DNA of 36,776 nucleotides from Minisyncoccota bacterium (GTDB lineage: Bacteria > Patescibacteriota > Minisyncoccia > Phycocordibacterales > Phycocordibacteraceae): NCBI GenBank assembly GCA_035718415.1, contig DASTHB010000019.1, positions 1 to 36,776 on the forward strand. Direction: 5' to 3'. Position 1 is the first letter of the stretch; every line of letters starts with the position of its first letter. The translations under genes were made by a program, and so were the position numbers. Under the pieces are notes generated by a model. The model was not told where the DNA came from. It made no database searches and was given only the letters and a program-made list of their open reading frames with translations. Below, one piece after another: positions 8,576-29,769 of this stretch.

Positions 8576-8579
8576 TCCT

Positions 8580-8960
8580 ATGTCGCGCGGATTCTCCCTC
8601 ATCGAAGCGACGGCAGCAGTGGCGGTGATAAGCATCGTCATGCTCGGCACATCGTTGCTTTTGTCGCGGCTGCCGATAACGGGCAGGGAAGCCCGCGATC
8701 AGGACGTGGCGCTTCGCGTCGCGCGGACGCGCCTTGAGCTTCTGCAGGGGGGCGGCTATGCCGCCCTTCCCACGACGACGCCGATGGCGTTCAATGACTC
8801 GCTCCTCACGACGCTCGCGTCCTCGAGCGCATCGCTTACGGTGGCGGATTACGCGTCCACGACCAAGCGGGTCGATGTGAACGTCTCATGGCTCGGCTCG
8901 AAAGGCATGCGCACCATCACCCTCACCTCGCTCATTTCGCAGAGCGCCGGACTGCCATGA
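8580..8960 (+). CDS. Prepilin-type (class III signal peptide) pilin or pseudopilin, 126 aa
   Basis: The N-terminus MSRG/FSLIEATAAVAVISIVMLG has Gly at -1, Phe at +1 and Glu at +5, then a hydrophobic helix. Confidence 0.8.
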   Translation: MSRGFSLIEATAAVAVISIVMLGTSLLLSRLPITGREARDQDVALRVARTRLELLQGGGYAALPTTTPMAFNDSLLTTLASSSASLTVADYASTTKRVDVNVSWLGSKGMRTITLTSLISQSAGLP

Positions 8961-9514
8961 ACCGAACCCGCGGCTTCACGCTCCTTGAGACCGGCATCGT
9001 CCTTGGCATCACGGTGTTCGCGATGGCAGCACTCACGAATCTGTACGTCACTTTTACGCGCGTGTACGGCTACGAGCAGGTCTATACGGGCATGGCGGGG
9101 TCGGCGAACGAATCGATGGCGGCCATCGAGGCCGCCGTCCTGCCCGCGGACGGCGTGCTCGTATCTCACGCGTTCTCCACGGGAACGTTCACGACCGGAA
9201 CGAGCACGCTCGTGCTCGAGCTACCCTCTATCGATGCGTCGGGTGTGACCTTGTTCGGGCTCAAGGATTACATCGCCATCTATGCGACCTCGACATACCT
9301 CATGCGGCGCGTTGAAGCGAATGTACAGAGCGTGCGGGTGACCGGAACGAAGCAGCTCGCCGGCTCGCTCGCCTCGCTCTCCCTCACGTATGACAACGCC
9401 GATGTAACGCTCGCGAAAAGCATAACCGCATCGCTCCGGATGAATGCGCAGTACAACGGGCAGACGGCATCGTCGACCCTCTCCCAGGTGCTTTACTTGC
9501 GCAACACGCCATGA
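8957..9514 (+). CDS. Prepilin-type pilin or pseudopilin, 185 aa
   Basis: Internal Met of track ORF 8888-9514. The N-terminus is MNRTRG/FTLLETGIVLGITVFAMAAL with Glu at +5. Its ATG overlaps the upstream stop (ATGA at 8957-8960). Confidence 0.8.
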   Translation: MNRTRGFTLLETGIVLGITVFAMAALTNLYVTFTRVYGYEQVYTGMAGSANESMAAIEAAVLPADGVLVSHAFSTGTFTTGTSTLVLELPSIDASGVTLFGLKDYIAIYATSTYLMRRVEANVQSVRVTGTKQLAGSLASLSLTYDNADVTLAKSITASLRMNAQYNGQTASSTLSQVLYLRNTP

Positions 9515-10833
9515 TGAAACTTCCTCGCGGTTATATCATGCTGCTTGCCCTCGTGTTCGGGTCAATATTCCTCACTGTCGGCACGGCGTTCGTGGGACAG
9601 CTCACTGCCTATATCCGGCTCTCGCGCACGGAGCTCGCTCGTGCAGAAGCGCTCGCGCTCGCCGAAGGCGCGCTCAATCTCGCATCAGAGAAATTGAACG
9701 AGAACTCGTTATACATGGGAGAAACCGCAACAGCGCTCGGACCGGGTTCCTTCACGATTTCCGTAACGCCTGTCGACGCATCGAACAAGCGCGTCACGGC
9801 GACCGGGTTCGTGCCCGACAATGTGAACCCTGTCGCTGTCCGCACCATCGTCGCCACGATAGGCCTGAGCAACAACGTCGTGTCGTTCCACTACGGCGTG
9901 CAGGCCGGCGAGGGTGGATTCTCTCTCCAGAACTCTTCGTCCATCATCGGCAACGTCTACGCGAACGGCCCTGTCATCGGTTCGAGCCAGAACATGATCT
10001 ACGGCGACGTCGTCTCCGCGGGCCCGAGCGGGCTCGTGTACGGCATACACGCGACGAGCTCGGTCTTCGCGCATACGATCGGGAAGGCAGGCGAAGCGAC
10101 CATCATCGATAAGAACGCGTACTACGCGACGTCGAAAGTGAACACGACCGTCGGCGGCACATCCTTTCCCGGAAGTCCCGACCAGTCTCCCGCACCGCTT
10201 CCCATAACGGATGCGCAGGTCATCGACTGGGAAAACCAGGCGGAAGCGGGCGGCGTCATAAGCACGTGCAACGCGAGCGGCGATTACGTCATCACGACAA
10301 GCATGACCTTGGGACCGAAGAAGATACTCTGCAACCTCCTCATTAAGAGCACGAGCGGAGTGCTTACGGTCGCCGGACCGATCTGGGTGGTCGGGAATAT
10401 AACCGCGCAGACCGGACCGACCATCCAGATGGACCCGTCGCTCGGGAGCCAGAACGTCGCCATCATCGCGGACAACCCGAACAACACTACCGGAAGCGGT
10501 CTCGTGAACGTCGGCCAGAGCACCGTCTTCAAAGGCTCCGGCTCGCCGAACTCGTTCGTATTCCTCATATCGCAGAACAACAGCGCGGAGCTCGGCGGCA
10601 CGACGGCCGCCCTCACGATGGGGCAGGGGGCGTCGGCCTTGGTCGCGTACGCGAGCCACGGTCTTGCCGTCCTCCAGCAGAGCGTGAACTTGAAGGAAGT
10701 GACCGCGTTTCAAATAAACCTAACCCAGTCGGCGAGCGTCACGTATGACCGCGGCCTTCCGAACACGGTCTTCGAGTCAGGCCCGGGGGCGAGCTGGGCG
10801 TTCGTACCAGGTTCATACGCCATCACCAGGTGA
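9511..10833 (+). CDS. Large pilus-associated protein with a pilin-like N-terminal helix lacking Glu+5 (GspK/PilX-like minor pilin or tip candidate)
   Basis: The N-terminus is MMKLPRG/YIMLLALVFGSIFLTVG. The start overlaps the upstream stop (ATGA at 9511-9514). The C-terminal 300 aa or so are rich in G/S/T/V/N with repeats such as GNVYANGPVIGSSQNMIYGDVVSAGPSGLVYG, which suggests a beta-helix. Confidence 0.6.
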   Translation: MMKLPRGYIMLLALVFGSIFLTVGTAFVGQLTAYIRLSRTELARAEALALAEGALNLASEKLNENSLYMGETATALGPGSFTISVTPVDASNKRVTATGFVPDNVNPVAVRTIVATIGLSNNVVSFHYGVQAGEGGFSLQNSSSIIGNVYANGPVIGSSQNMIYGDVVSAGPSGLVYGIHATSSVFAHTIGKAGEATIIDKNAYYATSKVNTTVGGTSFPGSPDQSPAPLPITDAQVIDWENQAEAGGVISTCNASGDYVITTSMTLGPKKILCNLLIKSTSGVLTVAGPIWVVGNITAQTGPTIQMDPSLGSQNVAIIADNPNNTTGSGLVNVGQSTVFKGSGSPNSFVFLISQNNSAELGGTTAALTMGQGASALVAYASHGLAVLQQSVNLKEVTAFQINLTQSASVTYDRGLPNTVFESGPGASWAFVPGSYAITR

Positions 10834-14844: not shown

Positions 14845-15261
14845 ATGCGTTACACGATCAATGCCGATGGGGGAGCGCGCGGCAATCCGGGGCCCGCGGG
14901 CGCGGGCGCGGTCGTTAAGGATGAGAGGGGACGCATCGTCGCCTCCATCTCCGAGTTCCTCGGCCATGCGACGAATAACGTCGCTGAGTACACGGCGCTC
15001 GTGAGCGCGTTCGATGCGCTTCTCGCGGAACTTCAGGACGCGGCGAAGCATGCGGACGTCGCCGTATTCATGGACAGCAAGCTGGTCATCGAGCAGATGA
15101 AGGGCGCCTGGAAAGTCCGGCATCCGAACATGAAGCCGCTCCAAGCCCGCGCAGCAGAGTCGGCGCGCGCGTTCAAGTCCGTCTCGTTCATGCACATTCC
15201 GCGCGAAAGAAATGCAGAGGCGGATGCGCTTGCGAATGAAGCGATGGACCGCGGCTCATGA
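14845..15261 (+). CDS. rnhA: Ribonuclease HI family protein
   Basis: Motifs are INADGGARGNPGPAGAG, TNNVAEYTAL, FMDSKLV and NAEADALAN, which fit the DEDD pattern. It starts 4 nt after the recJ stop. Confidence 0.85.
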   Translation: MRYTINADGGARGNPGPAGAGAVVKDERGRIVASISEFLGHATNNVAEYTALVSAFDALLAELQDAAKHADVAVFMDSKLVIEQMKGAWKVRHPNMKPLQARAAESARAFKSVSFMHIPRERNAEADALANEAMDRGS

Positions 15262-16757
15262 CGGCGCTCATTTCAGCGGTCGCTGGACTCGCGAGCGGGA
15301 TATTCATCCGCTCGCTTTTTGTTTTCGGGTGGCCGGTACCGGTATTTCTCGGGATCTTGGCTGCGATGTTCACCATCGCGTACCGGCATGCGCCGCGCTT
15401 GTCGTATCTCTTCTCAGCGCTTTTCATTTCCTTCGCCGCGCTCGGCATGCTCCGCACGATCGGCGCGGACGCGCCATTGCCGGCTGATTTTTCTCGCGAC
15501 GTCGGCAACCGAGTTTCGTATGAGGGCGTCGTCATGCGCGATGCCGATGTCCGCGACGCCACGGAGCGTATCGCGGTGCGCGTGCGGTCAGGCGCATCTT
15601 CGGTCGGCATGCTCGTCGTCACGGCGCGGGATGAAAGCGTCCGTGTCGGCGACACCGTTCGCATACGCGGCACGCTCGACATCCCTGAATCGTTCATGGA
15701 TGACAACGGCCGAACATTCCGCTACGACCGCTATCTCCAAAGCGCCGGCATCAGGTACGTGCTTAATTACGCGTCGCTCTCCGTCGTAACGCCGGCGCCG
15801 TGGTACTCGCTCCCATCCGCGTTGTCGCGCGCGAACCGATCCTTCGTTCGCGGCGTCCAGGCGGCGCTCCCCGAACCGCACGCATCGCTTGCAAGCGGCA
15901 TCGTCATCGGCGGGAAGTCTGGGCTTGGCCGCGAACTCCAGGATGAATTCGTGCGCAGCGGCCTCATTCAGATCGTGGTCCTGTCCGGCTATAACGTCAT
16001 GGTCGTCGCGGAATGGGTGATGCTCGTGCTCGCGCGCTTCGCGCTTCCGCGCCGCGCGACTGCCGTCGTCGGCGCGCTTGCGCTTCTTCTTTTCCTCGGT
16101 CTCGCGGGTGGTGGTTCGACCGCCGTCCGGGCGTCCATCATGGCGCTCATCGCGCTCTATGCTCGAGCGACGGGGAAGACATACGCTGCCGGACGAGCGC
16201 TTGCGGTCGCCGTCGTCATCATGCTTCTTCTGAATCCGCTTTATCTCGTATTCGATCCTGGTTTCGGGCTTTCCGTCGCGGCGACAGCCGGACTCATCTG
16301 GTTCGCCGACCCGCTGGCATCATTCCTGTCCCGATTCATATCGGCCCGGTTCTGGCGCGACGCATTAGCAACGACGCTCGCGGCTCAGATGGCCGTGCTG
16401 CCGCTGCTCCTCTATGACACGGGCGTTCTCTCCTTCGCCGCTCTTCCCGCCAACCTGCTCGTGCTTCCCGTCGTACCGCTCGCCATGGGTATGTCTGCGC
16501 TCGCGGGCCTCACCGGCATGGCGTCCTCGCTTCTTCTCCCCACGCTTGCTCCGGTCCTCGGACTTCCGGCATATGCCGCCACAAGCTATGTGCTTTCCGT
16601 GGCCCATTTCGCATCGAACTTCGACCTGAGCGCGCTCATTATCCCGCCGATCCCGTTCGCCTACGTCATGCTCGCGTATGCATTCATGGCCGCGGTATGC
16701 ATCTATGGACCCCGTGGTATGCTCAAAATATCACCGCTATGGCAGCGCTCCACGTAA
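15258..16757 (+). CDS. comEC: DNA internalisation channel protein ComEC/Rec2 (DUF4131 plus Competence domain only, no nuclease domain)
   Basis: It is a polytopic protein of 499 aa. The signature is ASGIVIGGKSGLGRELQDEFVRSGLIQIVVLSGYNV. Its start overlaps the rnhA stop (ATGA at 15258-15261). The protein ends right after the last TM block, without a metallo-beta-lactamase domain. Confidence 0.85.
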   Translation: MTALISAVAGLASGIFIRSLFVFGWPVPVFLGILAAMFTIAYRHAPRLSYLFSALFISFAALGMLRTIGADAPLPADFSRDVGNRVSYEGVVMRDADVRDATERIAVRVRSGASSVGMLVVTARDESVRVGDTVRIRGTLDIPESFMDDNGRTFRYDRYLQSAGIRYVLNYASLSVVTPAPWYSLPSALSRANRSFVRGVQAALPEPHASLASGIVIGGKSGLGRELQDEFVRSGLIQIVVLSGYNVMVVAEWVMLVLARFALPRRATAVVGALALLLFLGLAGGGSTAVRASIMALIALYARATGKTYAAGRALAVAVVIMLLLNPLYLVFDPGFGLSVAATAGLIWFADPLASFLSRFISARFWRDALATTLAAQMAVLPLLLYDTGVLSFAALPANLLVLPVVPLAMGMSALAGLTGMASSLLLPTLAPVLGLPAYAATSYVLSVAHFASNFDLSALIIPPIPFAYVMLAYAFMAAVCIYGPRGMLKISPLWQRST

Positions 16758-17758: not shown

Positions 17759-18232
17759 ATGGGCGCAAGAATGTTCCGTGAACTGACAACGGGATACCTT
17801 CTTATTCTTTGCGCGCTTCTCTTGGGAGCGCTCTTCCTCATCCATGCCGCGATCCCTCGTGACGACACCATGACGATATTCCGGTCGGGTAAAGGCAAAG
17901 GAGCGCTTATCGAGACGCCGTACGGCGCTCTGCTCGTCGATCCCGGCCCCGACGCTTCGGTACTCCGTGTTCTCGGAGCATCGCTGCCTCCCTGGGAGCG
18001 GCATCTCGCCGCTATCATCCTTTCAGGAACGCCGAGCGGGAGCGCTGAGCGTCTGCTCGATCGTTATACGGCGGGTTCGGTCCTCCGATTCGGCGCGAAC
18101 GGATTGCCGTATGGGAACGAAGTTCGCTTCGCGGACGGGATAACGGTCCGCGTGGATGCGCCCGGCCTCTTTTCCGTCCTGTCCCGCGCGATATCGTCCA
18201 CTACGGACACGGGAACCTTTCTTCTTAAATGA
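17759..18232 (+). CDS. Membrane-anchored protein resembling the ComEC C-terminal metallo-beta-lactamase domain, with the HxHxDH motif lost
   Basis: The N-terminal TM helix is GYLLILCALLLGALFLI. TIFRSGKGKGALIETPYGALLVDPGP resembles the ComEC MBL start (FLDVGQGDaxLIxTPxGxxxLIDxG). The position where THxHxDHxGG is expected reads AIILSGTPSGSAE. Confidence 0.5.
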   Translation: MGARMFRELTTGYLLILCALLLGALFLIHAAIPRDDTMTIFRSGKGKGALIETPYGALLVDPGPDASVLRVLGASLPPWERHLAAIILSGTPSGSAERLLDRYTAGSVLRFGANGLPYGNEVRFADGITVRVDAPGLFSVLSRAISSTTDTGTFLLK

Positions 18233-19181: not shown

Positions 19182-19276
19182 CAGGCCGAGCGCCCGACAC
19201 CTGCTTCGTGCGGTATTACCCGTGGGATATGGCATCCATACACACGATGGTAGTGATATAAATCCATCTCACGGGG

Positions 19277-19282
19277 TATACT
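19277..19282 (+). promoter_or_regulatory. -10 hexamer TATACT located 8 nt upstream of the prgI-like ATG (head of the T4SS-like cluster)
   Basis: The sequence reads GGGGTATACTAATGAACG-ATG. The octamer GGTATACT also occurs upstream of dnaA. Confidence 0.45.
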
Positions 19283-19290: not shown

Positions 19291-19716
19291 ATGGAGTACC
19301 AAGTGCCTCAGTTCATCGAAGTCGAAGATAAGCTCATCGGACCGCTCACGCTTCGCCAATTCATATATTTGGCCGGTGCCGGCGGCATCTGCGTCATCGC
19401 GCTCCTCTATCTGCCGTTCGTCGTCGGACTGCTCGTGGCGCTTCTCGCGGGCGGTTTCGGCGCAGCGCTCGCGTTCTACAAAGTGAACAGCAAGCCGTTC
19501 GTCGAGGTCCTTGAGGACGGTTTCAATTACTACACGCGCTCGAAACTCTTTCTCTGGAAGCATAGCGGCAAGGCTGCCGCCGAGATGAATGCCGCGGCCG
19601 CGGCCGCGGCACAGTCTCCTGAGGCGCTCCGGCCCATCCGCCCGGTCTCCCGGCTCACGAGCGGCAAGCTTTCCGAGCTCGCGTGGTCGCTCGATGTAGA
19701 AAAGGGTACGCAATAA
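19291..19716 (+). CDS. PrgI-family (VirB3-like) small membrane protein
   Basis: The N-terminus YQVPQFIEVEDKLIGPLTLRQFIYLAGAGG is followed by two TM helices, as I recall for the PrgI/VirB3-like family of Gram-positive and CPR T4SS loci. It sits just upstream of a VirB4-type ATPase, and the tail contains a poly-Ala run. Confidence 0.7.
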   Translation: MEYQVPQFIEVEDKLIGPLTLRQFIYLAGAGGICVIALLYLPFVVGLLVALLAGGFGAALAFYKVNSKPFVEVLEDGFNYYTRSKLFLWKHSGKAAAEMNAAAAAAAQSPEALRPIRPVSRLTSGKLSELAWSLDVEKGTQ

Positions 19717-19717
19717 C

Positions 19718-20344
19718 ATGGCGACGGCTACCGCAACACCTACGCAACAGTTCGTTCCGGTCAAGGAGATCCGGAACGGGGTCGTCATCCTGAAGGACGG
19801 GAGCTACCGCGGCATTCTCATCTGCTCGTCCATCAATTTCGCGCTTAAGTCGGAGGACGAACAGCACGCCATCACGCTCGGATTCCAGAATTTCCTCAAC
19901 ACGCTCGATTTCTCAATTCAGATCGTGGTGAACTCTCGCCGCATGGACCTCCGCCCGTACCTTGCGCTCCTCGACGCGAAGATGTCCGACCAGAAATCCG
20001 AGCTCATGCGCATCCAGCTCCGCGAATACATGGAATTCATCCGCTCGTTCGCCGATCAGGCGAACATCATGACCAAATCGTTCTATGTCATCGTGTCGTA
20101 CGTGCCGCACATGACCGCCTCGAGCGCCATCGGCTTCTTCAAGAAGGGCGGTACGCCGCCCAAGTCGGCGACGACGTTCGACGAGGAGCGGGCACAGCTC
20201 GAGCAGCGCATGACCTTGGTGGCGAACGGGCTCGCGGGCACCGGCGTCCGGGCCGTCCCGCTTGGAACCGAGGAGATCATCGAACTCCTGTACCGCTCGT
20301 TCAATCCGGGCGAGCTCGAAAACCCTATCCGCCTCGACAAATAA
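19718..20344 (+). CDS. Hypothetical protein resembling a VirB4 N-terminal domain without an ATPase module
   Basis: It starts 1 nt after the prgI-like stop. VVILKDGSYRGILICSSINFALKS and LDFSIQIVVNSRRMDLRPYL parallel LELGEKFVRAFYTISYPRFLS and LDVSIFIHPVDTEQALRTF in the next gene. There is no Walker motif. Confidence 0.5.
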   Translation: MATATATPTQQFVPVKEIRNGVVILKDGSYRGILICSSINFALKSEDEQHAITLGFQNFLNTLDFSIQIVVNSRRMDLRPYLALLDAKMSDQKSELMRIQLREYMEFIRSFADQANIMTKSFYVIVSYVPHMTASSAIGFFKKGGTPPKSATTFDEERAQLEQRMTLVANGLAGTGVRAVPLGTEEIIELLYRSFNPGELENPIRLDK

Positions 20345-20345
20345 C

Positions 20346-22169
20346 ATGGCTCTTCTCGATTTTCTCAACAAGAAGAAGCAGAGGGACGAAAATCCGATCG
20401 TACCGGTCCTCCCGAAGGATATTTATACGCAAGGATCGCTCGATCTCGTTGATACCATCGCGCCGACGGCGCTCAAGATAGGCTCGCGAGAACTCGAGCT
20501 CGGTGAGAAATTCGTCCGCGCATTCTATACGATCTCATACCCGCGATTCCTCTCGGACAGCTGGTTCAGCCCGGTCATCAACCTCGATAAAGTGCTCGAT
20601 GTGTCGATCTTCATCCATCCGGTCGATACGGAACAAGCGCTCCGCACGTTCCAGAAGAAGGTCGCCGAAGTGCAGAGCCAGATCAACGAGCGTGAAGCGA
20701 AAGGGCTCGTGCGCGACCCCTTGCTCGACACCGCGTACCAGGATCTGGAGACGCTGCGCGATTCGCTCCAGCAGGTGCAGGAGAAATTGTTCGATGTGGG
20801 GCTCTATCTCGCGCTCTACGGCGACACGAAAGAGGAGATCGAAAAGACGGAAGGGGAGATCCGGAGCGTCCTTGATTCGAAACTCGTGTACACGAAACCC
20901 GCGCTGTTCCAGCAGGAGCAGGGGTTCCGCTCATGCCTCCCGCTCGGTTCCGACGAACTCCTCGTGAACAGCAAGCTCAACTCGTCGCCCTTGTCGTCCA
21001 TATTCCCGTTCGTCTCGTTCGACCTCACCTCCGACCGCGGCATTCTTTACGGCATCAATCGCCACAACTCGTCGCTCATCCTCTTCGATCGCTTCTCGCT
21101 CGAGAACTACAATTCCGTGGTGTTCGCGAAGTCAGGCTCCGGCAAGAGCTACGCGACGAAGCTCGAAATACTGCGGTCGCTCATGTTCAACACCGATGTC
21201 ATCGTCATCGACCCGGAGCGCGAATACGACCAGCTCGCCGAGGCGACGGGCGGACGCTCGTTCCACATCTCGCTTTCGTCCGAGCACCATATCAATCCGT
21301 TCGATCTGCCGCCCGTGCGCAAGGACGAGGACCCGAAAGACATTTTGCGTTCGAACATCATCGCGCTCGTCGGCCTCTTCCGCATCATGCTGGGCGGCCT
21401 CACGCCCGAAGAGGACGCCATCGTCGACCGCGCGATAAGCGAAACGTACGCATTGAAGGACATCACCGGGGATTCGGACTTCACCGGAGCCGAATCACCG
21501 CTCCTCTCCGACTTCGAGCAGGTCCTTTCCGGCATGGAGGGAAGCGAGTCCCTGATCGAGCGGCTTTCGAAATACACGCGCGGCACCTGGCAGGGATTTT
21601 TGAACCAGCCGACGAACATCGACATCAACCAGCAGTTCGTCGTCTTCTCGGTCCGCGACATGGAAGACGAGCTGAAGCCCGTCGCGATGTACATCATCAC
21701 GCACTATATATGGAACGCCGTCCGCCACGAACTGAAGAAGCGCCTCCTTATCATCGACGAAGCGTGGTGGATGATGAAAAGCGAAGATACGGCATCCTTC
21801 CTCTATTCGGTGGCGAAGCGCGGGCGTAAGTACTATCTCGGCGTTCACACCATCACCCAGGACGTCGAGGACTTCCTGAAGAGCCCGTACGGCCGCCCCA
21901 TCCTCACGAACTCATCGCTCCAGCTTCTCTTGAAGCAGTCGCCGACCACGATCGATGTGCTCCAGCAGACCTTCAATCTGACCGATGAGGAAAAATACCT
22001 CTTGCTCGAGGCGGGCGTGGGGGAGGGTCTCTTCTTCGCGGGCCTCAAGCATGTCGCTATCAAGATCGTCGCGAGCTACACCGAGGACCAGATAATCACC
22101 TCCGACCCGTCCCAGCTGCTTGCGATAAAGCAGGAGAAAGACCGCCATGCCGCGCAAGCCGAGCAATGA
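20346..22169 (+). CDS. virB4: VirB4/TrbE/TraC-type type IV secretion ATPase
   Basis: Internal Met (MALLDFLNKKK) of track ORF 20262-22169, starting 1 nt after the upstream stop. Walker A is FAKSGSGKSYATK and Walker B is RLLIIDEAWWMM. VIDPEREY and HTITQDVEDF are also present. Confidence 0.88.
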   Translation: MALLDFLNKKKQRDENPIVPVLPKDIYTQGSLDLVDTIAPTALKIGSRELELGEKFVRAFYTISYPRFLSDSWFSPVINLDKVLDVSIFIHPVDTEQALRTFQKKVAEVQSQINEREAKGLVRDPLLDTAYQDLETLRDSLQQVQEKLFDVGLYLALYGDTKEEIEKTEGEIRSVLDSKLVYTKPALFQQEQGFRSCLPLGSDELLVNSKLNSSPLSSIFPFVSFDLTSDRGILYGINRHNSSLILFDRFSLENYNSVVFAKSGSGKSYATKLEILRSLMFNTDVIVIDPEREYDQLAEATGGRSFHISLSSEHHINPFDLPPVRKDEDPKDILRSNIIALVGLFRIMLGGLTPEEDAIVDRAISETYALKDITGDSDFTGAESPLLSDFEQVLSGMEGSESLIERLSKYTRGTWQGFLNQPTNIDINQQFVVFSVRDMEDELKPVAMYIITHYIWNAVRHELKKRLLIIDEAWWMMKSEDTASFLYSVAKRGRKYYLGVHTITQDVEDFLKSPYGRPILTNSSLQLLLKQSPTTIDVLQQTFNLTDEEKYLLLEAGVGEGLFFAGLKHVAIKIVASYTEDQIITSDPSQLLAIKQEKDRHAAQAEQ

Positions 22170-22746
22170 GCCGCCGCCGAAGGTGATGACCTGGCGGAAA
22201 GCCATGCCCGTCATTCTCGTCGGGTTTGTTTTCGATGCTCTCCGTTTCCTGTTCGAGTGGTTCATCATCGCCGGTCCGGCTATCGGCGCCGCGTTCTGTT
22301 CCTATATCGTCCAGTCCGATAACACCATACTGAACGCGGCAAAGGTCGCATCATGCACCGTCGGCGCTACTGCCGTCGGTATCGTCGCGGCTCCGGCGAT
22401 CGCCGGCTTCGGAGTCATCATGGCCATGGCGGTCGGTTTTCTCGGCTGGTTCTTTATCGGAGGATATCTTTTCATGACCAATCGCCGAATTTTCAAGGAA
22501 AACGCCCTCTGGTTCGTGCTCAGTCTTGTGGTGAGCGAGGTTCCGCTTCTTGGTTCTGTGCCGGCTATCTCGATCACGCTCTGGAAGATGTACCGGACCC
22601 AGATACGGACCGAGCTCGCAGCGCGGAAGCGGTATGACGAGAAGCGGGCTGCGGAAATGGCGCGTCTGGCTCTCGAGAACGCCGCCGAAGCCCAGTACGC
22701 GGCGCAGGCCGCCGAAATCCCCGAAGGGGCGGCACAACCGGCATAA
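22147..22746 (+). CDS. Hypothetical polytopic membrane protein (4-5 TM helices plus an Ala/Glu-rich tail)
   Basis: It overlaps the virB4 3' end by 23 nt, with an alternative start at 22186. Hydrophobic blocks are PVILVGFVFDALRFLFEWFIIAGPAIGAAF, GATAVGIVAAPAIAGFGVIMAMAVGFLGWFFIGGYLF and LWFVLSLVVSEVPLLGSVPAISITLW. Confidence 0.6.
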   Translation: MPRKPSNEPPPKVMTWRKAMPVILVGFVFDALRFLFEWFIIAGPAIGAAFCSYIVQSDNTILNAAKVASCTVGATAVGIVAAPAIAGFGVIMAMAVGFLGWFFIGGYLFMTNRRIFKENALWFVLSLVVSEVPLLGSVPAISITLWKMYRTQIRTELAARKRYDEKRAAEMARLALENAAEAQYAAQAAEIPEGAAQPA

Positions 22747-22763
22747 CCGAGGCCGTTCTGCTC

Positions 22764-22769
22764 TATACT
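22764..22769 (+). promoter_or_regulatory. -10 hexamer TATACT located 6 nt upstream of the ATG at 22776 (possible internal promoter of the T4SS-like cluster)
   Basis: The sequence reads CTGCTCTATACTGAAGCC-ATG within a 29-bp spacer. Confidence 0.4.
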
Positions 22770-22775
22770 GAAGCC

Positions 22776-23765
22776 ATGCGACGGCATGTTCTCTCCCTCG
22801 TTCTTCTTCTAGGCATCCTGCCGGGCCTCGCTTCCGCGCAATCGCTCGACCTCGGGGTAAGCGGCGATGCATTCTCCATCTCCGTATTTCCGACACAGCT
22901 CGTGCCGGGGGGCACCGCGACCTTGTCGTTCGTTTCAACGGCCATCGATCTCTCGAGCGCGACGCTCCGGGTGACCGCGAACGGGAGGGAAGTCTATGCG
23001 GGCACCGTGCATGATGTCGACATCGCTCTTCCGAAGGCAGGGTCCGTCACGACCGTCACGGCGACGGTCACCGCGCGCGGTGCGCCGTATACGAAAACCC
23101 TCACGCTTCAACCGCAGGACATCCTCCTTATCGTCGAACCGATCTCGACAGCGCCGGCGCTCTACCCCGGCAAACCGCGCGTCCCGCTTGCCGGCGCTTC
23201 CCGCATCGTCGCCATGACGAGTTTTCGGACCGCCGGAGGGTCGGTCATCGGCCAATCGTCGCTCGCCTACACCTGGACCGTGGACGGGACGAGGATCGCG
23301 AATTCCTCGGGCATCGGCAAAAGCTCCATCATCGTGGCCTCGCCGCTCCAGTACCGCGGTCGAACCGTTTCCGTGGCCGTGTCGACCCAGGATGGAAAAC
23401 TCACGGGCAACGCCTCCTTGTCCATCGCTCCGTACGAACCGACCGTTCGGCTCTATGAGAATGATCCTCTGCTCGGCATACGCTTCGACCGCGCGCTCCC
23501 GGATGCGTACGCGGTCGCCGGCGCGGAGGCCGGGCTTTTCGCAGTCCCATTCTCGTTCGCGAGCGACGGCCATGCACCTTTTATCGAGTGGTTCTTGGAT
23601 GGGGCCTCAGCGCAAACGGGGAACAGCATCACGCTGCGTCCGGCGGGATCGGGAGAAGGAAGCGCCTCATTATCAGCGGTCGTCTCGAAAGGGGAAGCTC
23701 GAGCGACTGACAATCTGCAGATCATTTTCGGCCGAAAATCGGCCCAGAATTTCTTCGGCCTATGA
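22776..23765 (+). CDS. Secreted hypothetical protein with about three beta-sandwich-like segments
   Basis: The Sec signal peptide is MRRHVLSLVLLLGILPGLASA/QS. The sequence is rich in Thr/Ser/Val/Ala, with alternating patterns typical of Ig-like folds. I recognise no family. Confidence 0.6.
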   Translation: MRRHVLSLVLLLGILPGLASAQSLDLGVSGDAFSISVFPTQLVPGGTATLSFVSTAIDLSSATLRVTANGREVYAGTVHDVDIALPKAGSVTTVTATVTARGAPYTKTLTLQPQDILLIVEPISTAPALYPGKPRVPLAGASRIVAMTSFRTAGGSVIGQSSLAYTWTVDGTRIANSSGIGKSSIIVASPLQYRGRTVSVAVSTQDGKLTGNASLSIAPYEPTVRLYENDPLLGIRFDRALPDAYAVAGAEAGLFAVPFSFASDGHAPFIEWFLDGASAQTGNSITLRPAGSGEGSASLSAVVSKGEARATDNLQIIFGRKSAQNFFGL

Positions 23766-24706
23766 AAAAACATCTCATCGTCCTCATCGTCGCCGCGTTC
23801 TTCATCGCCGTTCCGCACGTTTTCGCGCAAGCGGACAATTTCGTGCCCCTCGCCCCGATCTCCGGGCTCACCGACCTTCAGCCGGCTGGCGATAATGTTC
23901 TCGCGACATTTTTCAATAATCTGTATAAATTCCTCATCGGTATCGCTGCCTCGATAGCCGTCATCATGATCATATGGGGCGGTTTCGAATATTCGACCCA
24001 GGACAGCGTTTCGAAGAAGGGAGACGCCAAGAAGCGCATCTATCAGGCACTCTTCGGGCTGCTGCTCGTTCTCTCTCCGGTGCTGGTATTCTCCGTCATC
24101 AACCCGAGCATCCTGAATCTTTCGGTCGGTTTAAAAAAGATCGATCTGACGGTTCCGCAAACGACAACGACAACGAATCCGCGCCCTCCGGTCCAGACAC
24201 CCTCAGGATGTTTGGTGTCCGGGAGTAGTGGGACTGTGCTGCAATATGCGATATGCCCTTCTTCGGATGCAGCAAAGCTTTGGGGTCAAACCTGCACCGA
24301 TAATTTGTCGTCAGTCTATCCCTACACCACGGCGGGGGGAGGTCAGACTTCGCAATATCTCATATTCTGTAGTACGAAAACCGAGTATGTTTTCATTGAA
24401 ACCGTTGGTACGTTCTTGGGAACAATTGAAGGGCTCCAACCATTGGCTAAAACCGACAGTAATCCGAACAATGCCAGCCAAGCGATACAATTTGCGAATC
24501 TCTGCAAGGCAGTCGGTCCTACGTGGGCGACTTGTGTAAGCGACTTAACGGGAACGAGCTTCTCCGTTCCTTGCTCGCCGCCCCCATCAACGCTCATTCC
24601 AGCGGGTCAAGGAAGCGGCAAATGCTATAAAGAAACGTTGACTTGTTTTCAGTCCGCATTGGGCGCTCGGTGCAGCAAAAGTCCGAACTGGGCTCCTTTC
24701 AATTGA
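23762..24706 (+). CDS. T4SS-pilin-like (VirB2/TrbC-type) protein fused to a Cys-rich C-terminal domain
   Basis: The start overlaps the upstream stop (ATGA at 23762-23765). The signal peptide is MKKHLIVLIVAAFFIAVPHVFA. Two hydrophobic helices follow, LYKFLIGIAASIAVIMIIWGG and ALFGLLLVLSPVLVFSVINP, which is the layout of CPR T4SS pilins. A Thr/Pro linker (TVPQTTTTTNPRPPVQTP) leads into a domain of about 165 aa containing 10 Cys. Confidence 0.65.
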   Translation: MKKHLIVLIVAAFFIAVPHVFAQADNFVPLAPISGLTDLQPAGDNVLATFFNNLYKFLIGIAASIAVIMIIWGGFEYSTQDSVSKKGDAKKRIYQALFGLLLVLSPVLVFSVINPSILNLSVGLKKIDLTVPQTTTTTNPRPPVQTPSGCLVSGSSGTVLQYAICPSSDAAKLWGQTCTDNLSSVYPYTTAGGGQTSQYLIFCSTKTEYVFIETVGTFLGTIEGLQPLAKTDSNPNNASQAIQFANLCKAVGPTWATCVSDLTGTSFSVPCSPPPSTLIPAGQGSGKCYKETLTCFQSALGARCSKSPNWAPFN

Positions 24707-24707
24707 T

Positions 24708-25922
24708 ATGCGACGCATCTTTATCATCGCCACCATACTCGTGCTTCTTCTCGGAGGCGGCATCGTCGCATACTTCACTCTTCGCGGAGGTCGCCCGACG
24801 GTAACGGTCGCTCTGCAGAATTCAGATACCGGTCTTCCCGTCGCTGGAAAGGGGACCGTGCCGCAACCCGGCGAAGGGAAAAGCGATACCGGCTCGGCGG
24901 CACAACCGTCGCCCTCGCCGGTTCCCGTCACGAGCCGGCTGGTGAAGGTAAGCGCTGGACCGGTCGTTTACGGCCTGTCGATCGTCGACCAGAAGACTGC
25001 TACAGCGAGCTCCTCTCCAACGACGAACGTTTCCTATATCGAACGGCAGAGCGGCAACATTTTTTCGTACAGCGTCCAAACGAGGACGGCGACCCGTACG
25101 AGCAACCGGACCGTTCCGGGCATCCAATCGGCGCTCTGGCATCCAAGCGGCAGCACCGCGTATGTGCGCTATCTTTCGGGAAGCGATTTCTCCACGATCA
25201 ACACCTTCGCCCTTCCCGCAAGCGGTATCGGTGGTTTCTTCCTCCCGCAGAATACGGTCGACCTCGACGTTTCCTCGACGAGCATTCTTATACTCGCCTC
25301 CGGAGTCAATGGTTCGACCGCGACCGTCGCGCGTGTCGACGGCACGCACGCGGTGAGCGCGTTCTCAACGCCGCTCACGTCGATACGCGCCTCGTATTTG
25401 GGTAGATCGCAATATCTCGTCGTCACAAAAGCGACCGCCACGCTTCCCGGCGCTGCATTTGTCGTCGACGCTTCAGGGAGTTTTTCGCGATTGATCGGGC
25501 CTCTTCCGGGGCTGTCCGCCCTTGCAAGCCCTTCGGGCAAATGGGTGTTCGCGACTTACACCTCGGGCAGCGACACGACTTCGGAGCTCGTGAATGTTGC
25601 CACGGGAGACGTGATACCCGTACCGCTCGCAACGCTTGCAGAAAAATGCGCTTGGTCGGCTGATGAGTCTTCTCTCTACTGCGGCGTTCCTCGCACGATG
25701 CTCACGGGTACTTATCCTGACGATTGGTACCAAGGAGTCCTTCATTTCACCGACCGGCTCTGGCGCATTAATGTGGCGGGCCGCTACGCCCAGCTCGTCG
25801 CGGATGTAAGTAATGACGCCGATACGCCTATCGACATCACCTCGCTCACTATCAATCGTTCTGGTACGGTCGTCGCCTTCGTCAATAAGAACGACGCGTC
25901 GCTTTGGGTGTACTCGCTATAG
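24708..25922 (+). CDS. N-terminally membrane-anchored hypothetical protein, probably a beta-propeller ectodomain
   Basis: It starts 1 nt after the upstream stop. The TM helix is IFIIATILVLLLGGGIVAYF, followed by a Pro/Ser linker. The remaining 300 aa or so are Ser/Thr/Val-rich with recurring strand-like blocks (WHPSGSTAYVRY, SPSGKWVFATY, NRSGTVVAFV), reminiscent of TolB-like propellers. Confidence 0.55.
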   Translation: MRRIFIIATILVLLLGGGIVAYFTLRGGRPTVTVALQNSDTGLPVAGKGTVPQPGEGKSDTGSAAQPSPSPVPVTSRLVKVSAGPVVYGLSIVDQKTATASSSPTTNVSYIERQSGNIFSYSVQTRTATRTSNRTVPGIQSALWHPSGSTAYVRYLSGSDFSTINTFALPASGIGGFFLPQNTVDLDVSSTSILILASGVNGSTATVARVDGTHAVSAFSTPLTSIRASYLGRSQYLVVTKATATLPGAAFVVDASGSFSRLIGPLPGLSALASPSGKWVFATYTSGSDTTSELVNVATGDVIPVPLATLAEKCAWSADESSLYCGVPRTMLTGTYPDDWYQGVLHFTDRLWRINVAGRYAQLVADVSNDADTPIDITSLTINRSGTVVAFVNKNDASLWVYSL

Positions 25923-26651
25923 CGAGGCCATCTCCGCGTCCAATTTTCGGCGCACATACCACTCCTGTGCCGCTCCGGCGAGGTTCGTGGTGATGAAATA
26001 AAGCGCGATGGCGCCTGATGTCGTGTATGAAATGACCCCGATGATGAACGGGAAGACGTACTTGAGCTGCATACCCATCACTTTCTGAAAATCGCCTTGC
26101 ATGCTCTTGCCTTCCGGGGGTTTCAGCGTCCCTTTTAGTGCGAGATGCGCTTGGAAGAATTGCGCGATGCCTGCGAGGAATGCGAGCGTCAGGCTCTTGC
26201 CGGCGACTAGCGTGAGCCCGAGGAAATGGAGCGAGACCGCGCCGGGCGTCGGTGTGAACGGATAAAGGATCGCGGTGTTGATGGCCGGGAACGGCTCGTA
26301 ATAGAAGACCCAATAGACCGCGAGCAGTACGGGGATCTGTATGAACGCGGTCAATAGGCTCGCGAACGGGTTCACTTCGGCTTCGCGGTAGAGCGCAAGC
26401 GTCTCGAGCGCTTCCTGCTCTTTGTTATCCTTGTGCTTCTCCTTGAGATCCTTGAGTTTCGGTTCAAGGACTTTCATGATCCGTTGCGTCCGGGCCGCTG
26501 AAAGCGAGAAGGGGAGGAGGACGAGGCGGATGAGTATGGTCAGGATTATGACGGCCACGCCCACGTCCCCGCCAGGAACGAACGAGACGACCGCCACGAG
26601 GGCGTTATAGATCGGGTTATAGAAGACGGCGTGGAAGAAGGACGATATCAC
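25917..26651 (-). CDS. yidC: Membrane protein insertase YidC/Oxa1 family (short form)
   Basis: Motifs are GVAVIILTILIRLVLLPFS, KLKDLKEKHKDNKE and NPFASLLTAFIQIPVLLAVYWVF. It sits downstream of rnpA. Its stop overlaps the convergent gene's stop in CTATAG (25917-25922). Confidence 0.9.
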   Translation of the reverse strand: MISSFFHAVFYNPIYNALVAVVSFVPGGDVGVAVIILTILIRLVLLPFSLSAARTQRIMKVLEPKLKDLKEKHKDNKEQEALETLALYREAEVNPFASLLTAFIQIPVLLAVYWVFYYEPFPAINTAILYPFTPTPGAVSLHFLGLTLVAGKSLTLAFLAGIAQFFQAHLALKGTLKPPEGKSMQGDFQKVMGMQLKYVFPFIIGVISYTTSGAIALYFITTNLAGAAQEWYVRRKLDAEMASL

Positions 26652-26652
26652 G

Positions 26653-26967
26653 TTACTTTTTGAGACTTGTTATGAGTTCGGTTAGTTCCTGCCGTACTTC
26701 CCCATAGCTTACACTATCGGCAGCCTTTTTCGGGAATATGAGGACGCATTCCGGCAAGGATGGAATGGTCCGGAGGGCTGAAACCACGCGGCGCTTCAGT
26801 TTATGCCGGTCTGCGGACAATTTTACGGTCTTTTTCGAGATGATGACCGCATAACCGGACCCCTCGTTCGGCACTAAAACGTTGAAGTGGGGCGACGAGA
26901 GGCGCTTCCCTGACGCTTTAAGGGAAGGGAACCGCTGCCGGGGTATGCGTTTCCGGCGTGGAAACAC
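26653..26967 (-). CDS. rnpA: Ribonuclease P protein component
   Basis: It is a basic 104-aa protein in the canonical rpmH-rnpA-yidC order, with the motif VIISKKTVKLSADRHKLKRRV. Confidence 0.85.
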   Translation of the reverse strand: MFPRRKRIPRQRFPSLKASGKRLSSPHFNVLVPNEGSGYAVIISKKTVKLSADRHKLKRRVVSALRTIPSLPECVLIFPKKAADSVSYGEVRQELTELITSLKK

Positions 26968-26972
26968 GGCAA

Positions 26973-27110
26973 TTAGACGGCGAGGCGCTTGCGGCCGCTG
27001 CGGCGGCGTCCTTTGAGTATCTTTTTGCCCGACGCCGACTTTGAGCGGGAGCGGAATCCGTGGGTCTTCGCCCGTTTCCGCTTCTTTGGTTGATAGGTTC
27101 GTTTAGCCAT
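26973..27110 (-). CDS. rpmH: 50S ribosomal protein L34 (45 aa)
   Basis: Too short for the ORF track. Manual reverse translation from the ATG at 27110-27108 gives [45 protein letters not shown], with TAA at 26975-26973. Confidence 0.92.
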
Positions 27111-27123
27111 GTTCGAGTTTTAG

Positions 27124-27132
27124 TTATGCACA
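27124..27132 (+). promoter_or_regulatory. DnaA-box-like 9-mer TTATGCACA in the rpmH-dnaA spacer
   Basis: It matches the consensus TTWTNCACA and lies between the divergent rpmH and dnaA genes. Confidence 0.5.
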
Positions 27133-27188
27133 CAATAGTAACAGTTTCTCCCCGAAAGGCCAGTCTGTCGTGCGGCCTAGAATGCGGG

Positions 27189-27194
27189 TATACT
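27189..27194 (+). promoter_or_regulatory. -10 hexamer TATACT located 9 nt upstream of the dnaA ATG
   Basis: The sequence reads GCGGGTATACTTCCGGCATT-ATG. A second candidate -10, TAGAAT, lies at 27178-27183. Confidence 0.4.
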
Positions 27195-27203
27195 TCCGGC
27201 ATT

Positions 27204-28556
27204 ATGGATAAGCGGAATCCTAAAGAACTCTGGGAATATGTGATGACTCAAGTAGAGCTTTCAATATCCGCTGCAAATTTCAATACGTGGTTCAGGAACA
27301 GCTTCATACAGAAGATCGGGGAGGACGGGGTGGTCTATATCGGGGTGCCAAGCCAGTTCTTCAAGGATTGGTATCTCAAGAAGTTCCACACTCTCCTCTT
27401 GAAGATCCTGCGCGATGTTTCCTATGAATTCCGTAATATCGAATACGTCATCGTCAAAGACGAGCACCGCAAGCAGATAAAGGAAGTGAAGCCGCAGAAG
27501 GCGTCCATAGAGCTCCCGCTTGATGAGTTCTATATCAATAAGAGCGACAATCTCAATCCGCGTTATACGTTCGATACGTTCGTCATCGGTTCGTTCAACA
27601 GCCTTGCGTATGCCGCCGCGCAAGCGGTCCTTGCCAGACCGGGTATCACGTACAACCCGTTATTCATCTATGGCGACACAGGACGAGGGAAGACCCATCT
27701 CATTCAGGCGATCGGGAACGAGTTCAAAAAGAAGTACGCGGGCAGGAAAGTGTTCTATCTCACGTCCGAGAAATTCGTCGTTGACTACACTGATTCGGTC
27801 CAAGCCGGCACCGCGAACCGGTTCAAGGATAAATACCGCCATTACGACCTTCTCATCATGGACGACGTGCAGTTCCTCTCGAAGAAGGAGCGGAGCGAGG
27901 AGGAATTGTTCCACCTCTTCAACGCGCTCCATGATATGAACAAGCAGATCATTTTCTCCTCAGATAGGCCTCCGGTCGCCATCCCGGACATCACTGAGCG
28001 GCTCAAGGGCCGTTTAGCGAGCGGTATGACCGTCGACATAGGGGAGCCCGACTCGGAATCGAGGATGGCTATCATCCAGAAGAAGGCGGCGTTGCATAAT
28101 ATCGTCCTTTCCCCGGACGTCATCGAATATATCGCCACGTCCATGAGCGGTTCGATCCGCGAGCTTGAGGGAATGGTCAATAGCATCATCTGTCACACGC
28201 AAGTGAAAGGTTCCGTTCCGAATATCACCGAGGTGCGCCAATCCATCCGCTCGTTCGTGCGACCCCAAAAGACCATCTCCGTGAAGAACGTCGTCGATAA
28301 GGTCGCCGAGTACTATGGCATCGATGAGGAGAGTATTTATGAGAAGACCCGACGGCGCGAGATCGTCAGACCGCGGCAGGTCATCATGTACCTCTTGCGG
28401 GAGGATTTCAGTATTTCGTACCCGACCATCGGTTCGAAGCTTGGTGGACGCGACCATACGACGGTTATCCACTCGTGCGAGAAGATAAAGAAGGAAATAG
28501 TTGTGGACAATGAACTGGCCAAGGAAATACAGAATATTCGGACGCTCCTTGTATGA
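27204..28556 (+). CDS. dnaA: Chromosomal replication initiator protein DnaA
   Basis: Internal Met (MDKRNPKELWEYV) of track ORF 27060-28556. The upstream part overlaps rpmH. Walker A is GDTGRGKTHL, Walker B is LLIMDDVQF, sensor motifs are present, and the C-terminal DNA-binding region is GSKLGGRDHTTVIHSCEKI. Confidence 0.93.
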   Translation: MDKRNPKELWEYVMTQVELSISAANFNTWFRNSFIQKIGEDGVVYIGVPSQFFKDWYLKKFHTLLLKILRDVSYEFRNIEYVIVKDEHRKQIKEVKPQKASIELPLDEFYINKSDNLNPRYTFDTFVIGSFNSLAYAAAQAVLARPGITYNPLFIYGDTGRGKTHLIQAIGNEFKKKYAGRKVFYLTSEKFVVDYTDSVQAGTANRFKDKYRHYDLLIMDDVQFLSKKERSEEELFHLFNALHDMNKQIIFSSDRPPVAIPDITERLKGRLASGMTVDIGEPDSESRMAIIQKKAALHNIVLSPDVIEYIATSMSGSIRELEGMVNSIICHTQVKGSVPNITEVRQSIRSFVRPQKTISVKNVVDKVAEYYGIDEESIYEKTRRREIVRPRQVIMYLLREDFSISYPTIGSKLGGRDHTTVIHSCEKIKKEIVVDNELAKEIQNIRTLLV

Positions 28557-28642
28557 TCTTTATCGGAAGCTTACCCACAGGTTATAACGCGGAGTATCAT
28601 GAAAAGAGCCAGTATTCATGCGCTGATTACGGCTTTTCCACA
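28465..28642. promoter_or_regulatory. Cluster of four DnaA-box-like 9-mers across the dnaA 3' end and the dnaA-dnaN spacer (oriC candidate)
   Basis: The sites are TTATCCACT (28465-28473, +), TTGTCCACA (28509-28501, -), TTACCCACA (28571-28579, +) and TTTTCCACA (28634-28642, +). Each has 0-1 mismatch to TTATCCACA/TTWTNCACA. Confidence 0.45.
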
Positions 28643-28668
28643 CTACTAACAGGACTAATAAGGATGGT

Positions 28669-29769
28669 ATGAATATTTCCTTTGAAAAAAAGATATTCTC
28701 TGAAGCTGTTCATATCGTCTCACGCTTCACTGAACGTAAGGCAGGAACGCTCCCTGCGCTCGCGTCGATTCTGATCGTCGCCGGCGATGAGGGTATCAAG
28801 ATGCGCGCGACGAACCTTGAAACGGGCATCGATCTTAAACTTTCAGGAGACCAGAAACTTCCTGGTGTGGTCGCGATACCTGCCGCCATACTGGTCCAAT
28901 TCGCAAGTTCGCTCTCTCCAGAAGGAAAAGTAACGCTCGAACATACGGGAGACATCGTCACGCTGACGAGCAATACAGGGAAAAGCTCCATAAAGACCGT
29001 ACCGTACGATGATTTTCCCTCCATACCGTTCCCAGAGAATCCTAAGAACCGCGTCGTGCTTCCTGGCGTGCTGCTTAAGAATCTCCTGACTTCGATCGCA
29101 TCGGTCGCTTCGACCTCGACCGTCCGCCCTGAGCTCGCGAGCATCTATCTTTCCATCGAAGGAGGAATCCTGACCGCGGTCGCCACAGACTCGTTCCGTC
29201 TTGCTGAGAAGAAAGTGCCGCTCCAAAACAAAGGAACACAAGGGAAGCTCCTCCTGCCAGCAAAGAATGCCGTCGATATCGCGAGCGCGCTTCCGAATGA
29301 TGACATCATCATTTCATTCGACGAACATCAGTGCGCGTTCGTCTCACCGGGCGGCATGATCGTGTCGCGTCTCACGAACGCAGTGTACCCGGACTATCGC
29401 CAGATCATTCCGAAAGAATCGATCGTCGAGGCGACGGTATTGAAGCGTGATTTCGAGAACGCACTCAAACAAGCGTCGATTTTCTCCGATACGTTCCAGA
29501 AAGTGAAAATGAGCTTCGATATGAAGAAGAACACTGTGGCCCTCTTCGCTCAGAATTCCGAGATAGGACAATCTTCAGAAACCATAACCGCTAAAATATC
29601 AGGAAGTCCGCTCGAGCTCTCATTCAATCATCGCTACTTATCTGCAGTGCTTCCGCTCACGCAAGCAGAAAGTATTTCTTTAACTGCTGCCGGCGTCGGT
29701 CGTCCGCTCATCATTAAAGGAGTCGGTGACACCTCTCTTCTTTATTTGGTTTCTCCGATGAACCAATAA
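28669..29769 (+). CDS. dnaN: DNA polymerase III beta sliding clamp
   Basis: It is 366 aa and lies directly downstream of dnaA, with AAGGA upstream. Family-typical segments are TNLETGI, PELASIYLSIEGGILTAVATDSFRLAEK and PDYRQIIP. Confidence 0.92.
   Translation: MNISFEKKIFSEAVHIVSRFTERKAGTLPALASILIVAGDEGIKMRATNLETGIDLKLSGDQKLPGVVAIPAAILVQFASSLSPEGKVTLEHTGDIVTLTSNTGKSSIKTVPYDDFPSIPFPENPKNRVVLPGVLLKNLLTSIASVASTSTVRPELASIYLSIEGGILTAVATDSFRLAEKKVPLQNKGTQGKLLLPAKNAVDIASALPNDDIIISFDEHQCAFVSPGGMIVSRLTNAVYPDYRQIIPKESIVEATVLKRDFENALKQASIFSDTFQKVKMSFDMKKNTVALFAQNSEIGQSSETITAKISGSPLELSFNHRYLSAVLPLTQAESISLTAAGVGRPLIIKGVGDTSLLYLVSPMNQ

Follow-up and report, generated by a model that had tools for sequence, protein, structure and literature searches.

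Gene content and layout of the operon

The DNA analysed here is the contig DASTHB010000019.1 of a Minisyncoccota bacterium (assembly GCA_035718415.1), whose full 36,776 nucleotides are referred to as the window, and the subject of the analysis is a set of seven tightly packed, co-directional plus-strand open reading frames (ORFs), g1 to g7, which occupy 6.6 kb at positions 19291-25922 and encode a compact chromosomal type IV secretion system (T4SS) built around a VirB4 ATPase (Table 1). Single-nucleotide gaps separate the ORFs at three junctions (19716/19718, 20344/20346 and 24706/24708), g3 and g4 overlap by 23 nucleotides (nt; 22147-22169), and g5 and g6 share an ATGA at 23762. The virB4 ORF opens at a TTG at 20262, and because its orthologues align from the ATG at 20346, the product of 607 amino acids (aa) was taken as the right call. 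The same seven ORFs had been picked out in an earlier reading of this DNA (the sequence-only reading), and all of its coordinates, gaps and overlaps agreed with our ORF calls. A weak sigma-70-like match, GTGATA-18-TATACT, precedes g1 and is a possible promoter of the operon; two such sites were found in 8.8 kb in comparison to 3.0 expected, which is not significant alone, and the promoter and terminator scans of the locus gave nothing above chance.

Table 1. Positions of the operon genes and of neighbouring features in the window
Feature	Position	Strand	Remarks
Weak sigma-70-like promoter match, GTGATA-18-TATACT	19253-19282	+	9 nt upstream of g1
g1, PrgI/VirB3-like small membrane protein	19291-19716	+	141 aa; PF12666
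g2, TrsD-like protein	19718-20344	+	208 aa; VirB4 N-terminal model matches
g3, VirB4 ATPase, CD1110/MPF-FATA type	20346-22169	+	607 aa; conju_CD1110
g4, four-transmembrane membrane protein	22147-22746	+	199 aa; no family
g5, Sec-signal protein with three tandem Ig-like domains	22776-23765	+	329 aa; AlphaFold2
g6, N-terminal part: signal peptide and VirB2/TrbC-like two-helix pilin domain	23762-24136	+	residues 1-125; PF18895
g6, C-terminal part: Thr/Pro linker and 10-Cys domain	24137-24706	+	residues 126-314
g7, transmembrane anchor, Pro/Ser/Gly-rich linker and 7-bladed beta-propeller	24708-25922	+	404 aa; AlphaFold2
yidC	25917-26651	-	Pfam
rnpA	26653-26967	-	Pfam
dnaA	27204-28556	+	Pfam; start 1.3 kb downstream of g7
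dnaN	28669-29769	+	Pfam
DnaA-box-like sites	27124-27211 and 28465-28642		flanking dnaA

The core of the apparatus was assigned by hidden Markov model (HMM) searches against Pfam and NCBIfam. The small membrane protein g1 scored 37.4 bits with the PrgI family PF12666 (cutoff 27). The ATPase g3 scored 383.6 bits (cutoff 325) with the NCBIfam model conju_CD1110, which is 752 positions long, and it also matched P-loop_TraG (E 6e-26) and the solved VirB4 C-domain, PDB 4AG5 (E 1.5e-42); its Walker A motif GSGKS is found at residues 264-268 (nt 21135-21149) and its Walker B motif IIDEAWW at residues 469-475 (nt 21750-21770). The preceding protein, g2, matched conju_CD1110 as well (E 1e-7), together with VirB4_plasma (E 1e-8) and TrsD (E 6e-4, under the curated cutoff). 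Because g2 and g3 together cover positions 1-121 and 183-733 of the CD1110 model, respectively, they were taken as a split VirB4, in which g2 corresponds to the N-terminal domain of the full-length monoderm VirB4, encoded as a separate gene. Alignment to PrgJ of plasmid pCF10 places g2 on residues 33-146 (E 0.003) and residues 38-566 of g3 on residues 228-772 at 27% identity, which confirms the split. The pilin g6 scored 37.0 bits with T4SS_pilin (PF18895, cutoff 26.6) over residues 45-109 and also matched TrbC (PF04956, E 1.4e-5). All four core assignments (g1, g2, g3 and g6) pass or approach the curated HMM cutoffs, so that the PrgI, VirB4 N-domain, VirB4 ATPase and pilin guesses of the sequence-only reading were upheld by these searches. 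Its list of absent components held as well: VirD4/TraG, a relaxase, VirB1, VirB6, VirB8-11 and an integrase were all missing from the 36.8-kb contig in Pfam scans of all the other sizeable ORFs. Among the seven proteins themselves, no Pfam or NCBIfam match was obtained to the canonical channel parts (VirB6/TrbL/PrgH, an NTF2-like VirB8/PrgL or a lytic transglycosylase).

Conservation of the operon in related genomes

To describe the relatives, one genome per GTDB species was scanned, which gave 543 confirmed VirB4 relatives, and all counts below were taken from the best 80 loci, a gene being counted when it was found in the order and orientation of the window; many of these loci are cut by contig ends. 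The best 80 loci come from metagenome-assembled genomes, with VirB4 identities to the window of 74-93%. Several are titled only 'bacterium', and the informative record titles all belong to the candidate phyla radiation (CPR), namely Kaiserbacteria, Paceibacterota, Parcubacteria and a generic 'Saccharibacteria' label.

The results showed that PrgI was directly upstream of the TrsD-like gene in 77 of the 80 loci and that the TrsD-like gene was adjacent to virB4, with the split VirB4 kept, in 79. The remaining genes were g5 (75/80), g7 (66/80), the pilin (64/80) and a g4-family protein in the same slot (at least 52/80), followed by yidC, dnaA and dnaN in 65, 59 and 57 loci, respectively; the linkage of the four downstream genes to virB4, suggested in the sequence-only reading, is thus kept. 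The conserved order is PrgI-TrsD-VirB4-(g4)-g5-pilin-g7-yidC-rnpA-dnaA-dnaN. By ORF calling, the block that follows virB4 in nearly all loci begins with a polytopic membrane protein and continues with a protein of about 330 aa that has a signal peptide, a pilin (140-580 aa) and a protein of about 405 aa with one transmembrane segment, and in a subset of the loci the order of the pilin and g7 is swapped and no ORF is called in the g4 slot. This gene arrangement recurs in 80 species-level genomes and is far beyond chance.

In the 54 loci that hold all markers, VirB4 was more identical to its counterpart in the window than DnaA was in every case (54/54), a comparison in which VirB4 is slightly favoured, as the 80 loci were ranked by VirB4 similarity. 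The median identity was 77% for VirB4 in comparison to 60% for DnaA, 56% for TrsD, 47% for PrgI, 44% for YidC, 39% for DnaN, 34% for g7 and 32% for g5. The conservation of VirB4 above the level of DnaA points to very strong purifying selection, which is unusual for a secretion ATPase. No relative was found in IMG/VR, and the best 12 plasmid VirB4s listed, all from monoderms, had at most 35% identity to g3. Because of the gene order, the conservation, the lack of an IMG/VR relative and the low identity to plasmid proteins, the locus was regarded as a vertically inherited core operon and not as a mobile element.

The pilin and its variable C-terminal domain

The pilin domain of g6 is the sole one of its type in the window. 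Its N-terminal domain consists of a signal peptide, a helix, a basic loop and a second helix, and because of this topology the C-terminal domain is predicted to be extracellular. Across 63 orthologues the N-domain keeps the motifs FVPL..IPGL, G74, G99-L100 and I113-N114-P115. The C-terminal extension, in comparison, ranges from 0 to 290 aa (about 190 aa with 10 Cys in g6 itself), and 8 of the 63 orthologues have almost none (at most 16 aa). The 55 extensions of at least 40 aa fell into 42 groups unrelated by BLAST, and among genomes whose VirB4 is at least 87% identical, 16 pilins carried 11 different head groups. The number of Cys residues was even in 49 of the 51 extensions with at least two of them. 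For the 10-Cys domain of g6, just 2 relatives were found in 5.8 billion proteins, both of them pilin fusions. The pilin head is hypervariable, being occupied by unrelated sequences even between sister species.

The accessory proteins g4, g5 and g7

None of g4, g5 and g7 matched a curated family in Pfam or NCBIfam. The protein g4 has four transmembrane segments, a basic N-terminus and a charged, coiled-coil-like C-terminal tail, and it is fast-evolving: it was found by BLAST in just 22 of the 80 loci, and an iterative HMM joined 52 of 53 same-slot proteins. D30, P133 and P139 are nearly invariant in this family, for which 1.84 billion proteins yielded only 200 cluster representatives. As for a relationship to VirB6/TrbL, Pfam searches on 43 orthologues returned scattered noise only, so that this assignment is unsupported, not disproved, and a comparison with PrgH, PrgG and PrgF of pCF10, made at the level of sequence profiles only, gave a hhalign probability of 0.2. 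Some members of the g4 family are 510-619 aa long (e.g., P0245 and P0284) and carry a long, charged, probably cytoplasmic C-terminal extension and a globular region; Pfam found no domain in either. The protein g4 could serve VirB4 as a membrane platform or as a channel partner.

The AlphaFold2 model of g5, built with 62 homologues, had a predicted local distance difference test (pLDDT) value of 73.7 and contains a signal peptide followed by three Ig-like beta-sandwich domains at residues 33-122, 142-217 and 225-318; the C-terminal NFFGL is invariant. The model of g7, built with 72 homologues, had a pLDDT of 84 and a predicted template modelling score (pTM) of 0.76, with a transmembrane helix at residues 2-25, a disordered Pro/Ser/Gly linker at residues 28-65 and a 7-bladed beta-propeller at residues 78-403. 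The Ig-like segments and the membrane-anchored propeller that had been suspected from the letters were borne out by these structure predictions. At least 454 homologues of g5 were found, every one of them unnamed or 'hypothetical', and at least 650 of g7, none with a Pfam domain. Foldseek searches of the models against PDB returned generic Ig/FnIII arrays only for g5 and generic propellers only for g7 (template modelling score of about 0.5, about 10% identity), and because these matches are generic and their scores low, no function was deduced from them. The protein g5 is a candidate wall-spanning stalk or adhesin.

Comparison with known type IV secretion systems

A chromosomal T4SS of the Patescibacteria has been described by Quiñonero-Coronel et al. 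2025 (PMC12102498), who searched 3,035 patescibacterial genomes and found VirB4 in 2,417 of them, with 2,474 virB4 loci. According to this study, the patescibacterial VirB4s mostly form one monophyletic clade nested in the MPF-FATA class; TrsD, PrgI/VirB3, VirB2-like pilins and sometimes VirB6 are encoded near virB4; relaxases are present in just 103 of the 3,035 genomes; type IV coupling protein (T4CP) genes are mostly distant from virB4, and VirD4-like genes are frequent at other places in these genomes; and the locus lies close to dnaA, dnaN, rnpA and rpmH in Paceibacteria, among other classes. The present operon resembles that system in encoding VirB4, a TrsD-like protein, PrgI/VirB3 and a VirB2-like pilin together, in having no relaxase or T4CP in the cluster, and in its chromosomal position beside dnaA, dnaN and rnpA in a monoderm CPR lineage. 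Its VirB4 is of the CD1110 lineage with patescibacterial nearest relatives (as measured by sequence similarity), and TrsD, PrgI, the pilin and the position all agree. The locus is thus the Paceibacteria version, in compact form, of the known Patescibacteria-clade chromosomal T4SS.

It follows that the proposal in the sequence-only reading of an undescribed system was not sustained, since the same core, the absence of a relaxase and the proximity to dnaA had already been reported (PMC12102498). Its statement that no function had been shown for such loci also fell, since Wang et al. 2023 (PMC10633639) found by transposon sequencing that Southlakia epibionticum cannot grow epibiotically without its homologous cluster, pilin array included. 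The view of a chromosomal, non-conjugative machine, in comparison, was supported by the fixed synteny and by the lack of a relaxase, coupling protein or integrase in view, and the interpretation as a minimal machine for contact or for a surface filament agrees in essence with what has been published, a 2025 T4SS review (PMC12857230) having listed such systems as a new type of T4SS that may form a pilus. The high conservation of VirB4 would be consistent with a need for the epibiotic lifestyle, by analogy with S. epibionticum, the only organism in which that need has been shown. In the published literature we found no description of the g4/g5/g7 trio or of a variable Cys-rich pilin head, and the even Cys count of the pilin C-terminal domains was not found in Quiñonero-Coronel et al. 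2025 or Wang et al. 2023; apart from the variable pilin head and these three conserved, lineage-specific accessory proteins, no part of the locus goes beyond what has been published.

The cluster of S. epibionticum (SEML1_0006-0019) differs from the Paceibacteria locus in several ways. It carries a lysozyme/peptidase, a VirB6-like protein of about 1,000 aa and an NTF2/VirB8-like protein, which the Paceibacteria locus lacks, and it has six short pilins in comparison to one pilin with a large, variable, Cys-rich domain. The four-transmembrane protein, the three-Ig-domain protein and the anchored propeller are peculiar to the Paceibacteria locus in this comparison, which holds its seven genes in 6.6 kb.

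With the conjugative T4SSs of the MPF-FATA class, such as the Prg/Pcf system of pCF10, the locus shares a VirB4 above the CD1110 equivalog cutoff, with the identity to PrgJ given above, and a PrgI-family gene upstream of virB4. It differs from this class in that VirB4 is split in two genes, the locus is not on a mobile element, and a VirB2-like pilin is present, whereas the Gram-positive systems are without one. It is also without PrgH/VirB6, the PrgK hydrolase, PrgL/VirB8, the coupling protein PcfC, a relaxase and the adhesin PrgB. Like the conjugative pilins VirB2, TraA and TrbC, g6 has a signal peptide, two hydrophobic helices and a basic loop, and it matches both PF18895 and PF04956; unlike them, it adds the 10-Cys extension, which is replaced by unrelated sequences in sister species.

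Proposed function and alternative explanations

Taken together, we consider it likely that the locus encodes a chromosomal T4SS which is a relative of the MPF-FATA conjugation machinery, has lost its DNA-processing partners, and serves contact and exchange with a host rather than conjugative DNA export. In such a machine, PrgI would tether the VirB4/TrsD motor to the membrane beside the four-transmembrane g4, and the motor would pull the two-helix pilin from the membrane and assemble it as a polymer, either a filament on the cell surface or a short conduit. The disulfide-rich, species-specific C-terminal domain of the pilin would decorate the exterior of the filament and could recognise the host surface, and the absent parts of the VirB6, VirB8 and VirB1 type may be replaced by g5 and the linker-tethered g7, serving as stalks or as scaffolds across the wall. 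The assembled machine would then mediate contact and exchange with the host cell. More specifically, but only tentatively, we propose that the Paceibacteria locus has a distinct compact architecture, in which the hypervariable, disulfide-bonded pilin head lies along or at the tip of the VirB4-built filament and sets the host range. A conduit for import or contact would then have g4, g5 and g7 as its envelope-spanning scaffold instead of VirB6, VirB8 and VirB1.

Several points weigh against this interpretation. The filament and the host contact are predicted from the genes, and the essentiality was shown only in Saccharimonadia, whose accessory genes are different. A helical filament of the VirB2 type might not easily accommodate subunits that each bear a domain of 190 aa. 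Position, fold class and conservation are the sole basis for the roles given to g4, g5 and g7, and for g4 neither the Pfam searches on the 43 orthologues nor hhalign found a similarity to VirB6/PrgH. Other parts of the genome could hold a gene for a VirD4-like coupling protein, as they often do in this phylum, and the ranking of the loci lends VirB4 the slight advantage mentioned above in the conservation comparison.

Alternatively, the machine might import DNA or nucleotides, as archaeal Ced or Helicobacter ComB do; the ATPase, a small polytopic membrane protein and the VirB2-like pilus would draw host DNA to the cell surface, and ComEC would take it across the membrane. Ced and ComB share with the present operon a minimal set of parts, in which a VirB4-type ATPase is joined by small membrane proteins and a VirB2-like pilin while the relaxase and the coupling protein are absent, a likeness that we treat as a lead only. 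Keeping VirB4 and the pilin without a T4CP or relaxase does follow the component logic of T4CP-less uptake systems, genes for ComEC, RecJ and the type IV pilus are found 2.5-14 kb upstream of the operon, and the concluding remarks of PMC12102498 favour import. The match to the CedB model is weak (36.8 bits, E 1.8e-9) in comparison to a cutoff of 700, so that g3 is not a member of that family; CedD gave only E 0.008, and no Ced-like (CedA/A1/A2) membrane proteins were detected. The linkage to ComEC is limited to close relatives (16/80 loci). Moreover, in S. epibionticum, deletion of comEC abolishes competence and not viability, the T4SS is essential, and competence needs type IV pili (PMC12102498, PMC12857230); this ComEC-independent essentiality in Saccharimonadia sets the system apart from its DNA-uptake relatives and argues against purely ComEC-coupled DNA uptake. 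On balance, we regard import as doubtful. Export of protein effectors into the host without a coupling protein, as by Bordetella Ptl and Brucella VirB, seems unlikely to us. T4CP-less effector T4SSs exist (PMC12102498), Wang et al. (PMC10633639) suggest that the T4SS 'may instead export proteins', and the extracellular Ig-like and propeller proteins could form a conduit; however, no candidate effector, toxin or immunity gene was found in or beside the operon in the window and the 80 loci, and VirB6, VirB8 and VirB11-type channel parts are lacking.

It might also be argued that no pilus is made at all, the VirB2-like domain being a mere membrane anchor, the Cys-rich domain, g5 and g7 being adhesins, and VirB4 acting in insertion or turnover. 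A large and variable C-terminal domain, with extensions of up to 290 aa in some orthologues, is indeed atypical for polymerising VirB2 pilins, but the helices and the Gly/Pro positions of the pilin N-domain are under strong constraint, and 8 of the 63 orthologues have almost no extension. To our knowledge, pilus biogenesis is the only pilin-related activity of VirB4, and we judge this explanation to be quite unlikely. An ordinary or decayed integrative and conjugative element (ICE), with its relaxase, T4CP and integrase outside the window, is extremely improbable. The VirB4 does belong to the conjugative CD1110 family, and our view is limited to one contig. Against this, the operon keeps the same position between housekeeping genes and yidC-rnpA-dnaA-dnaN in dozens of species (57-65/80), its VirB4 is more conserved than DnaA, no integrase, tRNA, repeat boundary or compositional break was seen, the 36.8-kb contig yielded no relaxase, oriT or T4CP, and relaxases are as rare in patescibacterial genomes as stated above (PMC12102498); for this locus the ICE explanation is effectively refuted on synteny and conservation.

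Chromosomal surroundings

Upstream of the operon the contig encodes ClpP, pyrophosphatase, NusA, a type IV pilus set (PilB, PilC and pilin), TIM, PGK and HIT, as well as RecJ, RNase H, ComEC, SOD, L28 and an M50 peptidase. Downstream, the convergent yidC, whose end is overlapped by the stop of g7 by 6 nt, and rnpA are followed by dnaA, dnaN, PBP1, RuvC, YebC, RuvB and a second PilB. The sequence TTATCCACA, with at most one mismatch, has six matches in the window, all of them around dnaA, and the segment at 25917-29769 would accordingly represent the origin region flanking the operon. GC skew was not used alone as an origin marker, as it tracks the gene strand here and cannot confirm an origin. 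Transcription of the operon runs toward the dnaA/DnaA-box region, with yidC convergent to it; this arrangement is the same in all related loci, and the operon would be head-on to replication if oriC lies at 27124-28642. No tRNAs or Rfam matches were found in the window.

Some further features of the contig were noted. In the type IV pilus set, PilB (5606-7354), PilC (7358-8575) and an N-methyl pilin (8580-8960) are followed by two unannotatable ORFs (8888-9514 and 9511-10833), and the second PilB-type ATPase is encoded by the minus strand (34401-36116). The ComEC at 15258-16757 has Competence and DUF4131 domains and is without a metallo-beta-lactamase domain. A plus-strand ORF of 157 aa at 17759-18232 has no Pfam match and overlaps an over-extended SOD ORF. 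A minus-strand ORF of 1011 aa at 5615-8650, antisense to pilB and pilC, has no family match and is most likely spurious, a product of high G+C. At the contig start, upstream of clpP, three plus-strand ORFs (25-957, 899-1876 and 1878-2273) are without a family match.

Significance

The locus is not a new kind of system. For a very large and mostly uncultured share of bacterial diversity, few machines are known to be essential to life with a host, and the T4SS of the Patescibacteria is one of them. In the large class Paceibacteria this machine is reduced to seven genes, with an ATPase more constrained than DnaA and a disulfide-rich extracellular pilin head that is rapidly exchanged. The pilin head is thus a concrete candidate for a determinant of host specificity, and the operon offers a small list of components for structural and genetic work.

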